From contig CAVRAG010000008.1 in the NCBI GenBank assembly GCA_963718895.1, forward strand, positions 320,001-384,000: DNA of 64,000 bases. Reading direction: 5' to 3'. The notes under the pieces are model-generated. The model was not told the DNA's origin and ran no database searches. It worked only from the letters and a program-made list of their open reading frames with translations. The position numbers and the translations under genes are program-made. Positions 22,312-27,068 of this stretch are shown here, in pieces. How positions within the stretch are numbered: the first letter of the stretch is position 1; each line of letters opens with the position of its first letter. The DNA is from an uncultured Nitrososphaerota archaeon. Its GTDB lineage: Archaea > Thermoproteota > Nitrososphaeria > Nitrososphaerales > Gagatemarchaeaceae.

Positions 22312-22506
22312 CCCAGGAATCCGGGGCTCGTCACATAAACGGTCACAATCGCCTGCTCGTTGGCATCTCGATGGACGTACTCCGCCCGGGAAATCATGAG
22401 CGGATGAGCGACAGGGAGGCTCGATCGTGCTGATCCTCGTTGGGGGCTAAATAGGCAGCGGAGATACCATCCCATGAACCCCACCAGAAGCAAGTCAAGC
22501 TGCATT

Positions 22507-22806
22507 ATGGTATTTCTGTTCGGGAAGCCCGCCTGGGAACTGGACCTCGAAGGCGAGGAAGTCGACGAGAGGATGGTACTGGACCTGTCGAAGCTCGGAG
22601 ACGAGCTCAGGGAGAGACTCCACCGCACGTCTCGACTGACGAAGACCCTGCTCGAGAACGGCTGGAGCGGGTCGGGCGGGCTCTACGACATCTCGTTCTA
22701 CAAAGACCTTGCGCCCGAGGACGCACGAAAGGAGCTGACCGCACTGGGAATCAGCCCCGACGAGGTGGACATCGAGGAAGACGATTGGTCTGACGACGAG
22801 GAATGA
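22507..22806 (+). CDS. Acidic hypothetical protein
   Basis: Host-like codon usage; MVFLFGKPAWELD... Confidence 0.65.
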   Translation: MVFLFGKPAWELDLEGEEVDERMVLDLSKLGDELRERLHRTSRLTKTLLENGWSGSGGLYDISFYKDLAPEDARKELTALGISPDEVDIEEDDWSDDEE

Positions 22807-22986
22807 GTCAGGGACTCGTACGGCGACAAGAAGAATACCATTTGAGAAGACGAATCCACTCGACATCGCGATTCAGGGGCCTCAGTATCCAAACTCAGCC
22901 TCAGGTTTGAGGACCGACGGAACCGGCAGGGAGCGAATGGAGCGAATTCGAGTGGCGGTTAAATATCCTAATCCTCTATTTGGAAG

Positions 22987-23203
22987 AGTGTCTCAAGCGC
23001 CGCGTGCACTCTCGATTGAAAGGTCGAGGGCAAGATAGGAAGACAAACCCTGACGAGGCCTAGGATTGGCGCGATGAAGCACACTTGGCCGCGGGACAGG
23101 TAAAGAGCGGGAAGGCGGTTATTCAAGTGCAGCTCAGGACCACCCGACCAAACGGCCGCTCAACGTGTCAGTTCGTCTCAGTCGAACGCATGCACAAGCG
23201 GCT
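22987..23203 (+). ncRNA. Candidate structured RNA / long 5' leader of the LAGLIDADG gene
   Basis: Starts about 22 bp after TTAAATA (22959-22965); nested stems, including a GAAA-tetraloop hairpin at 23009-23030; folded by eye only. Confidence 0.5.
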
Positions 23204-23230
23204 CACAGCGAATATAGGAAAGAACACAGT

Positions 23231-24592
23231 ATGTCCTCCGAAAGCAAGAAACAGAACGAAGGCTCTGAAGGTGATGGGGGTCACCGACAGGGCACACGCA
23301 AACGACACTTCCGAGGTCACTGGAACATGGAGAACACGAAGCCGTGGGTCGAGATGTTCGAGAAGCGGAGGATGTCAGCTCAGGCCATCGCAAAGGAAGT
23401 AGGCGCAGACCCAACCACCGTCAGCACTTGGCTGAAGAAGCAAGGCGCCAAGATCCACCAGGGGCTGCACCGCAAGGAGCGCCAGCCACCCAAGGTCTCG
23501 CCGGAACTCGCGAAGCTGCTCGCCAACGGCCCGGAGGAAGCGTTGAAGTTCCTGGACGAGCGCGTCTGGGGAATCGGCGCGTCACCGGGAGAGCTCGAGC
23601 AGCTGAGGAAGTTCTGCGAGTTCCTCAAGGTCCCTTTGAACGTGGGCAGGAACGAGACGGCGGACGAGGTTGACATCGACCGAGGCATGGTCAACGCTTG
23701 GACGGAAGGGACCAAACAGCCCTACCTGGTCAAAGCGGCGAACACAGCCCTGCAGACAGTCATCAGACCGGGACGGAAGCTGCTTCCACTGCACCTCGAC
23801 TCGGGAGGAAATGAACAGGGGCCGTGGATACAGGTTCCGACATCGATACAGGACTACAGTGACGTCGTCGATGTGACAGCGCAGCTTAGCCCCCTGGAGA
23901 GCACGTTTGAACGCGCCTCAGGGTTCAGGCTATCGAGACAACAGGTCGAAGACATGCGAAACGATCTCCTGGCATACCTCCTTGGCATACTGGCAGGAGA
24001 CGCAAGCAAGTCAGGGGGCAAACAGATTCGCTTCACCTCATCCAGCATAGACCTTCACCTCACCCTGAAACAACCAACGAACGAACGGCTCGGCGAGTTC
24101 GTCTGCATGTGCGCCAACAGCCTCAGCGTCGTCATGGACCGCAAACAGGACAAGCAACCGTCAGGCAGCACCCGGTTCGGCAGACATCCATCGGCGGCCT
24201 ACAGGTGGACTTCGGAACGTTCACCACTGATCGCCTGGATGTTCAACGTCGGGCTAGGGCTGCAATGGGACGAGTGCACCACACTCCACCCTCTCAGGAT
24301 GGACTGGATTCAAGGAACGCCACGTTCGTTCAGGATACGGTTCGTCCAAGGACTTGCCGACTCTGATGGAACCGTGAAGCCTTCAGAAGTCATAATCACG
24401 AGCGTTCCCAACGCAGACTTCCTCAGTAGGCTTCTGCAAGACCTCGGAATGACGACTGCTCACACAATCATGGAATACGGAAGGCCACTCCGCACAATGG
24501 TGAACCGCAAACAGTCAGCAACACTACCCATCTTCAAGGAGTTCGTCCGAAGCTACAGATACCTGAAGACCATGAACTACCTGAAGAACTAG
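23231..24592 (+). CDS. Free-standing LAGLIDADG-type endonuclease-like protein with N-terminal HTH motifs
   Basis: Two LAGLIDADG-like helices (AYLLGILAGDAS, FVQGLADSDGTV); HTHs AQAIAKEVGADPTTVSTWL and NETADEVDIDRGMVNAW; no intein splice motifs. Confidence 0.75.
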   Translation: MSSESKKQNEGSEGDGGHRQGTRKRHFRGHWNMENTKPWVEMFEKRRMSAQAIAKEVGADPTTVSTWLKKQGAKIHQGLHRKERQPPKVSPELAKLLANGPEEALKFLDERVWGIGASPGELEQLRKFCEFLKVPLNVGRNETADEVDIDRGMVNAWTEGTKQPYLVKAANTALQTVIRPGRKLLPLHLDSGGNEQGPWIQVPTSIQDYSDVVDVTAQLSPLESTFERASGFRLSRQQVEDMRNDLLAYLLGILAGDASKSGGKQIRFTSSSIDLHLTLKQPTNERLGEFVCMCANSLSVVMDRKQDKQPSGSTRFGRHPSAAYRWTSERSPLIAWMFNVGLGLQWDECTTLHPLRMDWIQGTPRSFRIRFVQGLADSDGTVKPSEVIITSVPNADFLSRLLQDLGMTTAHTIMEYGRPLRTMVNRKQSATLPIFKEFVRSYRYLKTMNYLKN

Positions 24593-24712
24593 AACCCCCT
24601 CCCCTCTTTTTTACTCTCATGTGGCTCTCGTGTATTTGTCGCGGCGTTTCGCGGCGTTAGTTGAAATCGGTGTTCGATGTCGGCGGTAACAGGCGAACCA
24701 GGCGTAACTGGA

Positions 24713-25039
24713 TTAGGTCGCCGCTCGAGGGAGAAGCTGCCGGAGACGACTGGTTTGGCTCAGCAGAACACTTGCTGCATTTCCGCTACTCATCCACTGG
24801 ATCCATCCAGGGCCTTCTTCCTGTGGGACGTACATGACTCCGGAGTGCAAGAACTCATAGGACGGCGAAATGAAGGTGGGAATGTGAGGCGGCGAAGCGG
24901 AAATCTACCCACACTAGGGATACGTCGAGGGCAGACTCCAAGGACCGAGCGCTTTCTGCGGAATAATCGGAGCGAGAAGGAAAAGCGCAACGGCAAGGAC
25001 GATGAGGCTGCTGAGAGGCAACCCGTGTGTGCGATTCAT
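24713..25039 (-). pseudogene. Degraded membrane/secreted protein gene with two in-frame TAG codons
   Basis: Hand translation MNRTHGLPLSSLIVLAVALFLLAPIIP...TYP*CG*ISASPPHIPTFISPSYEFLHSGVMYVP... Confidence 0.3.
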
Positions 25040-25115
25040 GATTAGCCTTCGATCTTCGTTTGATATGCGTGTTTGTCCAAACGGCTCCTATGACCCAGGG
25101 CGAATCTTGACATAG

Positions 25116-25730
25116 ATGACGCAGCTGCGAATTGAGTGGCGTTTATTACGCGCCGGCGGCTATCACATTGAGTCTAAGATGTTCACACCGCTGGACCTCT
25201 GCATTCAGACGGCGAGCGCTACGAACCACATTCTGAAAGAGATGTTGAAAGGAAGAAGGACATGGAGCTCGGTGACAGATTCCAGGGAGGACGAATCGAG
25301 CCTGTCTCTTATGGTCTCGGACAACACCCAGACCGCGTTCTGCAGGGTGGAGATACTCTCCCACAGGGTCGAAGGGCGAGGCAAGAAGCTATTCCTTGAA
25401 GCCATCATTCGAATGGACGTTCGGGAGGAGCCTCGACTCAATCTGAAGGATTTCGCTGTCGAGAGGACCATGAAGGAGATCTGGAGCTACTTTCCGGTGA
25501 TAACCATGGGCACCGAGTACGGAATCAAATTCAGCAAGGAATCAGGGCCGGAGCTCTCGACGAAGTCAGTCATGAACGTAGCAATAGTCGCGGTCTCGGA
25601 GGAGCTTAGCGTGAGAAAGCTTGGAGGCTTCGATTACGACCAGCTGGGCAGGACAATTGCGAATGGGATTGCGGTGATGAACGCAATCCACGATGTCGCT
25701 AAGCAGATCCCATCTTCGGAATGGAATTAG
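25116..25730 (+). CDS. Hypothetical protein with lower GC, convergent on tuf
   Basis: 204-aa ORF; start uncertain; ends 12 bp from the tuf stop. Confidence 0.6.
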   Translation: MTQLRIEWRLLRAGGYHIESKMFTPLDLCIQTASATNHILKEMLKGRRTWSSVTDSREDESSLSLMVSDNTQTAFCRVEILSHRVEGRGKKLFLEAIIRMDVREEPRLNLKDFAVERTMKEIWSYFPVITMGTEYGIKFSKESGPELSTKSVMNVAIVAVSEELSVRKLGGFDYDQLGRTIANGIAVMNAIHDVAKQIPSSEWN

Positions 25731-25742
25731 GGGAGAGGCAGC

Positions 25743-27068
25743 TTACGCCTTTGCGACTGCCTTCTCTACTTGGCCCTTGACGGTAACTTCGCGGACGATA
25801 CCCGCTGCCACTGTGGACCCCATGTCTCGGAGCGCAAATCTGCCCAATTCTGGGAATTCTTTGAAAGTTTCGAGTACTACTGGGCGCAAAGGTGTGATTT
25901 TTACAATAGCTGAGTCGCCGGTCTTGATGGTCTTGGGCTTCTCCTCGGTGGGCTGACCCGTCCTCGGGTCGATCTTGGCGATGATCTCGGTGATCGTCGC
26001 GGCGACCTGGGCTGTGTGGGCGTGCAGGACCGGCGTGTAGCCGGCCGCTATCGCCGTCGGGTGGAACACCACGATTATCTGCGCGAGGAACTCCTTGGCT
26101 ATGGTGGGCGGGTTGGCCGTCTCGCCGAGGACCGAACCCCTGTGGAAGTCGGTCTTGGCTACGCCCCTCAGGTTGAACCCGATGTTGTCCCCGGCCATCG
26201 CCTCCTGCATGGGGGTGTGGTGGGTCTCGATGGACTTGACCTCGGCCGGGAGGCCCTCCGGCATGATGACCACCGACTGGCCGACCTTGATCTTGCCGGT
26301 CTCCACCCGTCCCACCGGGACCGTGCCGACGCCCGTGATGGTGTAGACGTCCTGTATCGGGAGGCGGAGTGGCTTCTGGATTGGCTTCGGAGGCTCGGTG
26401 AACTCGTCGAGCGCCTGGAGGAGGGTCGGGCCCTTGTACCAGGGCATGTTCGTCGAGGCCTTGACCTCGTTCTCGCCGGTCCAGCCGGAGATGGGTATGA
26501 AGCGTATCTTCGAGACGTTGTAGCCAGAGGCCTTGAGGAGGTTCTCGACGTCCATCTTGGCGTCGTTGTACATCTTCTCGCTGTACTTCACCGTCTGGTC
26601 GTCCATCTTGTTTATCACGACGACGAGCTGGTTGACCCCGAGGGTCTTCAGGAGGAACGCGTGCTCCCTCGCCTGGCCGCCCGGCCCGAGAGCCGTGTCC
26701 TTCTCTCCGGTCTTGGCGGAGACGACGAGGACGGCCGCGTCTGCCTCGGAGGCGCCGGTGATCATGTTCTTGATGAAGTCTCGGTGCCCGGGAGCGTCGA
26801 TGAGCGTGTAGAAGTACTTCTGCGTCTCGAACTTCTGGAACGCGAGGTCGATGGTGACACCCCTCTCCCTCTCGTCCTTCAGCTGGTCGAGGACCCAGGC
26901 GTACTTGAAACTGTCACCGGCGCCGGTCTTCTCGGACTCGCGGGCGAACTCGTCTATCGTCCTCTGGTCGACCGCTCCGAGGTCAAATAGGAAGTGCCCC
27001 ATGCTGGTCGACTTCCCGTGGTCTACGTGACCGGTTACGATGAGGTTCAGGTGAGGTTTGTCTGCCAT
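25743..27068 (-). CDS. tuf: Translation elongation factor EF-1alpha
   Basis: GHVDHGKST, ERERGVTID, DAPGHRDF, NKMD, GRFALRDMG. Confidence 0.99.
   Translation of the reverse strand: MADKPHLNLIVTGHVDHGKSTSMGHFLFDLGAVDQRTIDEFARESEKTGAGDSFKYAWVLDQLKDERERGVTIDLAFQKFETQKYFYTLIDAPGHRDFIKNMITGASEADAAVLVVSAKTGEKDTALGPGGQAREHAFLLKTLGVNQLVVVINKMDDQTVKYSEKMYNDAKMDVENLLKASGYNVSKIRFIPISGWTGENEVKASTNMPWYKGPTLLQALDEFTEPPKPIQKPLRLPIQDVYTITGVGTVPVGRVETGKIKVGQSVVIMPEGLPAEVKSIETHHTPMQEAMAGDNIGFNLRGVAKTDFHRGSVLGETANPPTIAKEFLAQIIVVFHPTAIAAGYTPVLHAHTAQVAATITEIIAKIDPRTGQPTEEKPKTIKTGDSAIVKITPLRPVVLETFKEFPELGRFALRDMGSTVAAGIVREVTVKGQVEKAVAKA

Follow-up and report, generated by a model that had tools for sequence, protein, structure and literature searches.

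A kink-turn pseudoknot RNA predicted upstream of free-standing LAGLIDADG endonuclease genes in one family of Nitrososphaerales

What lies between a promoter and a gene that starts so far behind it? In the window studied here, a 64,000-nucleotide stretch of DNA from an uncultured Nitrososphaerota archaeon, a TATA-like box (TTAAATA) is found at 22959-22965 and the ATG of the next gene, a LAGLIDADG endonuclease, at 23231. A sequence-only reading had proposed a structured RNA of about 220-240 nt between the two, drawn as nested hairpins. Comparison with homologues bears out RNA-level structure upstream of the nuclease, conserved and covarying and reaching in the homologues from behind the TATA box to the start codon. 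The RNA is real, but its conserved part stops near 23116, and the structured RNA folds as a kink-turn pseudoknot, not as nested hairpins.

The gene (23231..24592, plus strand) encodes a free-standing, two-motif LAGLIDADG endonuclease of 453 aa with an N-terminal helix-turn-helix, as judged from Pfam, the alignment of homologues and a structure model. In Pfam, LAGLIDADG_3 scores above the cut-off and the helix-turn-helix is weak. There are 186 relatives, and the motif aspartates D257 and D379 are invariant in 33 out of 33 aligned sequences. The structure model has a pLDDT of 86, and its best Foldseek matches are PI-SceI, the TliVMA intein and I-DmoI. The acidic catalytic residues and the fold of a two-motif LAGLIDADG enzyme are present, and cleavage is predicted. 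The gene occurs in 26 out of 97 genomes of the window's Nitrososphaerales family and in none of 24 genomes of other families. It has a fixed site and it decays: its presence beside tuf is patchy, and several genomes carry split or stop-bearing copies. The host gene tuf (EF-1alpha by Pfam; 25743..27068, minus strand) lies tail-to-tail with the nuclease. Where a family locus extends at least 200 nt downstream, this arrangement is seen in 73 out of 76 cases, and where it extends at least 1300 nt, in 45 out of 45. A C/T-rich run directly behind the gene (24595..24612, plus strand) is a likely terminator by its sequence; four homologous contigs stop at a similar C-rich run, directly past the stop codon.

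Other features were seen in the neighbourhood. A gene for a 110-aa acidic orphan protein (22474-22806 in the window) travels with the element, either upstream or between the nuclease and tuf, and is also found in L009, L013, L018, L021, L037, L040, L088, L101 and L115. The gap between the nuclease and tuf (24593-25742 in the window) has more than 300 nt of extra DNA in 11 of 23 RNA-bearing loci, compared with 2 of 38 RNA-less ones. In L013, on the other side of the element and about 2 kb ahead of the nuclease gene's end, there is a second tuf 3' fragment (residues 418-439), as expected of a displaced gene end. An RNA-less LAGLIDADG paralogue is located tail-to-tail with an L7Ae gene at G000:C7:425400-426700 (L198).

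When the region 22970-23230 is folded alone, the minimum free energy is -85 kcal/mol (z -1.47), and 17 out of 200 shuffled sequences fold equally well. This lone fold is not better than chance, so the case for an RNA rests on the comparison of homologues. Rfam 15 gives no match at the gathering score within the window, only chance-level matches when E values up to 10 are allowed, and nothing notable in seven other loci.

From the comparison, we conclude that the conserved core of about 135 nt (22987-23116) is a real structured RNA. All its elements lie on the plus strand. The 5' strand of helix P1, supported by compensatory changes, comprises P1a (22987-22993), the non-bulged strand of a kink-turn (22994-22996) and P1b (22997-23001). 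Its 3' strand is made of P1b' (23068-72), a bulge (23073-75), G-A-A (23076-78) and P1a' (23079-85), so that P1a pairs 22987-93 with 23079-85 and P1b pairs 22997-23001 with 23068-72 in one long-range helix. P2 (23009..23030), placed between P1 and the next hairpin, has 7 bp (23009-15 / 23024-30) and a variable, A-rich loop of 8-9 nt. The 5' strand of the long P3/P4 hairpin (23049..23060) consists of CCTG (23049-52), CG (23054-55) and GGCC (23057-60). Its 3' strand (23087..23100) is recognised by pairing in both the type A+B and the type C/C' alignments: P3 joins CCTG to CAGG (23097-100) and P4 joins GGCC to GGCC (23087-90). The P1 3' strand sits inside the loop of this hairpin, which makes the fold a pseudoknot. 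The core ends in a conserved, purine-rich unpaired tail (23101..23116; alignments A2, A3 and A7), and a search for a pairing partner of this tail found none. At the base of P2 a G.A opposition is conserved, with the junction triplets GCA/CAA in 19 of 35 rows and GAA/CGA in 12 of 35. As a lead only, this G.A module could be a k-junction of the kind described in the available part of PMC10573300.

The fold was assessed in three alignments: 18 rows of types A and B and, separately, 16 rows of types C and C' (both MAFFT), and 36 rows fitted to the RNA model. Among the type A+B rows 90.5% of the cells pair, compared with 31-39% in slid controls, and 34 cells are altered on both sides, compared with 14.9 in shuffles. 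In the type C/C' rows 87.8% of the cells pair (slid controls 28-50%). The numbers of covarying pairs, which include kin because the rows are not independent in any alignment, are 8 out of 29 for A+B, not above the shuffles, 16 out of 32 for C/C', a count reached in 0 of 500 shuffles, and 13 out of 19 for the 36 model-fitted rows, an alignment that leans to the model. Compensatory changes are present in 3/7 (A+B), 6/7 (36 rows) and 3/7 (C/C') pairs of P1a, and in 1/5, 2/5 and 2/4 pairs of P1b, respectively. For P3 and P4 they are found in 4 of 6 and 3 of 8 pairs in types C/C', and in types A+B the P3/P4 5' strand is paired in 97-98% of the cells. Covariation that tolerates G-U pairs is seen in five helices. 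The core is also far better conserved than the coding sequence is at silent positions: in a set of five type A loci its identity is 63-77%, compared with 34-53% at fourfold sites, and between L041 and L104 the values are 91% and 39%.

Two further calculations say less. RNAalifold on alignment A3 recovered just P1b and P2, plus unsupported pairs, because it is unable to draw pseudoknots. A minimum free energy test found the hairpin that spans P1' (P3/P4) in 31 of 34 sequences versus 63% for shuffled tails, a modest excess; the test is weak because shuffled tails pair too, and covariation is used as evidence instead.

Every stem in the sequence-only reading can be found in the DNA at the position it was given, as are all the other coordinates, and homologues sort them. 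AGTGT/ACACT and GCGCC/GGCGC correspond to P1a and P1b, and both covary in the homologue alignments. Of the hairpin at 23009-23030, the outer seven pairs (P2) covary, but the GNRA loop and the two closing pairs are not conserved (47% paired). A hairpin with TAGG/CCTA enclosing CCT-GACG-AGG is not supported: it is 65% paired when its loop-closing pairs are included, and 173 of 500 shuffles reach as high. Its bases pair instead across the P1 3' strand, which gives the pseudoknot that was absent from that reading. The inner pairs of this hairpin persist because the bases themselves are conserved, and an alternative conformer may use them. The last hairpin, at 23154-23203, survives in part: counterparts with a common loop exist, but in the window's own subgroup only, and with zero compensatory changes in a 9-row alignment.

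The bulge between the P1b and P1a 3' strands is always 3 nt long and carries 13 different triplets. It is followed by G in 33/33 rows and A in 33/33, with an opposing A in 31/33 (A1n opposite G1b), counted over the rows with both strands after skipping 3 of 36 that are cut off. A kink-turn is defined by a C-stem and a 3-nt bulge followed by G1b and A2b (PMC6298567, available part), and these are found together in 33 out of 33 rows. Position 2n, opposite A2b, is G in 15, A in 15 and another base in 3 of the 33; about half of the copies, including the window's with its A, are thus non-standard here. Position 3n is G in 23/33 and C in the window copy, and the -1 pair before the bulge is C:G in 30/33. 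In the same part of PMC6298567, G at 3n together with C:G before the bulge is linked to folding in metal ions alone. Such a pattern points to a turn with a structural role, like those of riboswitches, and not to a switch that depends on L7Ae. The kinked geometry itself is a prediction, and any binding of L7Ae would be one as well.

The promoter of the leader, a BRE with the TATA-like box (22954..22965, plus strand), is identified by its spacing in homologues. A conserved AGCGC follows the promoter motif by 39-42 nt on the 3' side in 12 out of 13 type A/B loci with a pattern match; in the 13th the pattern was matched farther off. The type A/B motif is unmatched in all 8 type C loci. Judged by this fixed spacing, transcription probably starts with the first base of P1a, and so of the whole structure, at about 22987 and about 28 nt behind the TATA box. 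Downstream of the core, a lineage-specific 3' part of about 110 nt (23117..23230, plus strand), delimited by identity and folds, contains the hairpin 23154-23203 (loop 23176-82) and becomes purine-rich before the ATG. Among type A loci the identity of this part is 45-60%, versus 63-77% for the core, and the 3' folds are unrelated among leader types. A conserved core followed by a divergent 3' part is what a riboswitch, with its aptamer and variable expression platform, would show; ligand binding is hypothetical.

Some hints come from RNA libraries. In four RNA runs of one peat study (X1-X4, 7-10% of words), contigs of relatives, which are silent on start site, strand and level, begin at 22995, 23003, 23011, 23011 and 23066, none of them upstream. 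They run on into the 3' leader, and one (run X2) begins at 22995 beside the adapter. A transcription start near 23200-23230, one of the findings named in advance as refuting the structured RNA, is not indicated: the contigs begin at 22995-23011, although this is weak evidence from a single study. Four contigs from metagenome collections (library type not stated) begin inside the core and end directly past the stop codon. These are weak hints of a single transcript, which would run from the core to the terminator.

To follow the RNA beyond the window, the model R3 was scanned over genomes, where copies outside the nuclease family were also sought, and metagenomes were searched by protein. R3 marks 34 places in 22 out of 97 genomes of the window's family. 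Five weak matches in a thermosome-like gene were dropped as false. Of the 29 genomic copies judged genuine, 24 are followed within 1.8 kb, in the same orientation, by a LAGLIDADG gene or what remains of one (in one case just 22 aa, E 0.005; three places are identical in sequence), and 5 are not. The five copies without a detectable nuclease are all from genus g4, and three are partial. The model scan found no RNA in 126 genomes of other families of the order. Among 150 genomes of the phylum the sole weak match, in an acyl-CoA synthetase-like gene of G323, is false and lies in coding DNA. The RNA is therefore found in one Nitrososphaerales family only, a group of archaea from soil and peat, among the family, order and phylum genomes scanned. 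Viral contigs contain no relative of the protein and phage records no DNA match. Two scans of viral sequences for the RNA pattern gave 1 and 0 matches, and the one match is coding DNA without an R3 match.

Several arrangements recur around these copies. At G025:C128:3400-11750 (L189) four RNA copies, some partial, lie in 8 kb together with nuclease remnants, and G067 has similar places on C61 and C200; the clusters in these two genomes may stem from repeated insertion or from duplication in genus g4. In L179, L183, L185, L188, L191 and L192 and at G000:C8:888000-896500, the type C' RNA and a patchily distributed HerA-like ATPase gene are divergently oriented, and the promoter that they share has repeated GTNAC-type motifs. 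Beyond the HerA-like gene, several loci have RadA-like, membrane and winged-helix genes (by eye). Behind the core, some loci (L179:3816-4199, L180, L190:4224-4604) carry a small antisense gene for a clan AA aspartyl protease, which in L179 and L180 is inside the leader.

The RNA is not a fixed companion of the tuf-linked nuclease. Considering 73 non-redundant tuf-linked loci with more than 100 nt upstream, 20 have types A/B by an iterated profile and 8 have type C (one partial), a different promoter motif is found in 29 and nothing could be assigned in 16, i.e. 45 out of 73 are without the RNA leader. Several of the unassigned loci are close kin of RNA-bearing ones. In L009, L010, L012, L021, L037 and L088 the promoter and the open frame are kept, and the RNA and approximately the first 20 codons are lost.

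Neither does the nuclease determine the leader. A model built from types A and B alone recovered type C and the leaders of other nuclease families. The RNA-bearing nucleases form three families without significant BLAST similarity to one another, and their host loci differ: tuf, the genes of a radical SAM protein and of a ferredoxin, and a place close to EF-2. The core of L159 is 80% identical to that of L001, and their proteins share 19 bits. The cores of L161 and L165 are 82% identical and there is no protein match between them; L161/L151 and L165 are also alike just before the start codon. Since the leaders do not follow the proteins, and the start region is common, promoter, leader and start region would move as a cassette. 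By this comparison, the leader is swapped between nucleases of separate families.

What do the lineages without the RNA use? Among the tuf-linked loci with enough upstream sequence to be scored, 32 of the 44 that lack the RNA have ANTTTC at most 170 nt upstream, compared with 1 of the 15 that bear it; in random segments the frequency is 6%. The loci are related, and on the tree this contrast is a pattern over a few lineages and not a set of independent events. The surroundings of ANTTTC resemble the 20-bp Orc1-2 DNA-damage element of Sulfolobus as given in the available part of PMC6061795. It appears that the RNA-less lineages use a DNA-damage-type promoter box instead of the RNA, and on this comparison RNA and box seem nearly mutually exclusive. 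The ANTTTC-centred box lies about 40 nt before TTCATAA and about 60-125 nt before the nuclease start (L047, L053, L059, L085 and others). In the window's genome the best match to the damage element (17 of 20; G000:C7:625037, minus strand) precedes an Orc1/Cdc6-like gene (by eye), and no wider regulon is evident there beyond this top match. We also considered that the promoter box mimics a site in tuf, and dropped the idea: no consistent high-scoring site was found, although all tested alleles carry the element.

For the function of the RNA, we lean slightly towards a portable, cis-acting 5' leader that protects the 5' end of the transcript, gates translation of the nuclease after transcription and stands in for a damage-inducible promoter. 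The leader would be part of a cassette of promoter, folded core, variable 3' part, ribosome-binding site and first codons, which the free-standing LAGLIDADG genes of this archaeal family would capture from one another. The 5' extremity of the transcript would pair into the loop of a downstream hairpin, and the kink-turn would bend the P1 helix and let the pseudoknot close. The compact core could then protect the 5' end and gate translation via the variable 3' part, so that a potentially harmful nuclease would be made under certain conditions only. The fold, its conservation and position, the swapping and the near exclusion with the box are all read from the comparison of homologues; a regulatory role, and the trigger that it would respond to, are the conjectural part. 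No alternative pairing between core and ribosome-binding site, of the type a switch could use, was found. Some copies count against a leader. In L161/L151 an antisense protease gene separates core and nuclease by about 525-545 nt, yet the cores are 92% identical; in L160 a second TATA-like box, belonging to the nuclease gene, follows the core; and five copies have no detectable nuclease behind them.

A more far-reaching version, which we consider possible but doubtful, is that the core is a new archaeal sensor RNA, aptamer-like or catalytic, that detects some sign of DNA damage or exchange and then permits the nuclease to be translated. Such a sensor would replace, at the RNA level, the Orc1-2 damage box of the sister lineages and would be a plug-in regulator spreading among unrelated selfish nucleases.

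About as doubtful is that the core is an RNA of its own, released or separately transcribed, which acts in trans as an inhibitor or scaffold of the nuclease, or as a partner of a HerA-like ATPase module in DNA exchange. Such an RNA would explain a core conserved despite an antisense gene or second promoter before the nuclease, and its persistence in L167 beside a near-vanished nuclease. Further, each of the family's 9 best HerA-like matches is divergent from a type C' copy, and another 3, weaker, are 0.9-2.5 kb from tuf-type copies. However, the window has no HerA-like match, the same RNA accompanies three protein families lacking significant BLAST similarity while the same protein family lives without the RNA, and contigs that include the core continue into the 3' leader and, at four loci, as far as the gene end.

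Improbable, in our opinion, is a ribozyme, self-cleaving or capping, that would generate the 5' end of the nuclease mRNA in the manner of the lariat-capping ribozyme of twin-ribozyme introns. The core is a compact pseudoknot with conserved unpaired purines, several contig 5' ends fall on the kink-turn adenines (22995 in X2; L082, L098, L077), and the L013 core lies directly behind the upstream gene with no visible promoter. On the other hand, libraries commonly lose about 10 terminal bases, there is no Rfam ribozyme match and a known catalytic core is not seen, and in types A/B the core begins at the presumed start site, with little left to cut. The available part of PMC6274462 offers a precedent for such a ribozyme.

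Conservation at the DNA level (an element end, a transfer origin or an operator), or no function at all, is very improbable: the region alone folds no better than shuffles and most tuf-linked homologues are without the leader, but the covariation in five helices tolerates G-U pairs, a free 3-nt bulge is followed by an invariant GA, and the element lies behind a promoter and is conserved above fourfold sites. We give hardly any credence to a guide-plus-scaffold RNA that would make the LAGLIDADG protein RNA-guided, as omega RNAs do for IscB/TnpB, in spite of a conserved scaffold with a variable tail beside a nuclease with extra N-terminal domains, since exact matches between 23 leaders and tuf are 9-11 nt long, scattered and recurring among near-identical leaders only (as the sequence-only reading, which saw no tuf-matching guide, had it), no target site is common across leader types, the RNA is not obligatory (45/73 tuf-linked loci without leader; no RNA, best E 0.2-0.5, in five genomes at least 90% complete chosen for holding the tuf-linked gene as an open frame), and both catalytic aspartates and an I-DmoI-like fold are present.

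The RNA is a previously uncatalogued family of a known kind, that of structured RNAs with which the mRNA of a homing endonuclease begins. In a literature search that covered few subscription papers we found no description of such an RNA, or of any RNA dedicated to a free-standing LAGLIDADG system in archaea. LAGLIDADG is not mentioned in the main text of PMC5737381; its supplement describes 224 motifs, and one that is given there alone and is missing from Rfam might correspond to this RNA. The fold is new and well bounded: a long-range kink-turn closes a pseudoknot, and more than 40 natural variants are at hand for probing. The timing of the expression of a selfish nuclease becomes testable, as sister lineages seem to use either the RNA or a damage-type box. 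If the core should turn out to be ligand-sensing or catalytic, it would be a new class of riboswitch or ribozyme. To our knowledge, complex cis-acting RNAs are scarce in archaea.

Among known RNAs, the riboswitch aptamers of SAM-I, c-di-GMP-II and the glycine leader also have a conserved core with a structural kink-turn and pseudoknot, followed by a variable 3' part. The archaeal leader differs from these architectures in its topology and in having no Rfam match, and nuclease genes rather than a metabolic pathway lie downstream. Structured RNAs tied to a mobile endonuclease gene are known from the LAGLIDADG-1 and -2 motifs. HEARO/omega RNA and RAGATH-18, in the partial accounts available to us, share this association; here, in contrast, there is no Rfam 15 match, a guide segment was looked for and not found, and the nuclease family can do without the RNA.

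Kink-turns in archaeal 5' leaders are known from l7ae and other genes bound by L7Ae. There, according to the available parts of PMC5539422 and PMC6298567, the ribosome-binding site is covered by a weak stem-loop that depends on L7Ae for its folding, whereas the turn described here forms over a long range, lies far from the start codon and in most copies has the signature of ion-induced folding (the window copy, with C at 3n, is an exception). The lariat-capping ribozyme GIR1 (PMC6274462, in part) is alike in that the mRNA of a homing endonuclease has a complex RNA domain at its 5' end; the archaeal leader has no intron, no group I-like core was seen in it, Rfam gives no match, and catalysis is hypothetical. 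A parallel may also be drawn with homing endonucleases of the T4 type, both free-standing and in introns (I-TevI/II/III, segB and mobE): in the part of PMC2988022 available, RNA structures at the ribosome-binding site control their expression, the upstream structure is interpreted as limiting the nuclease, and free-standing genes lie beside a conserved host gene. The T4-type structures are simple hairpins over the ribosome-binding site, whereas here, in archaea, a kink-turn pseudoknot of about 135 nt ends about 110 nt before the start codon and, unlike those hairpins, is common to unrelated nuclease families.
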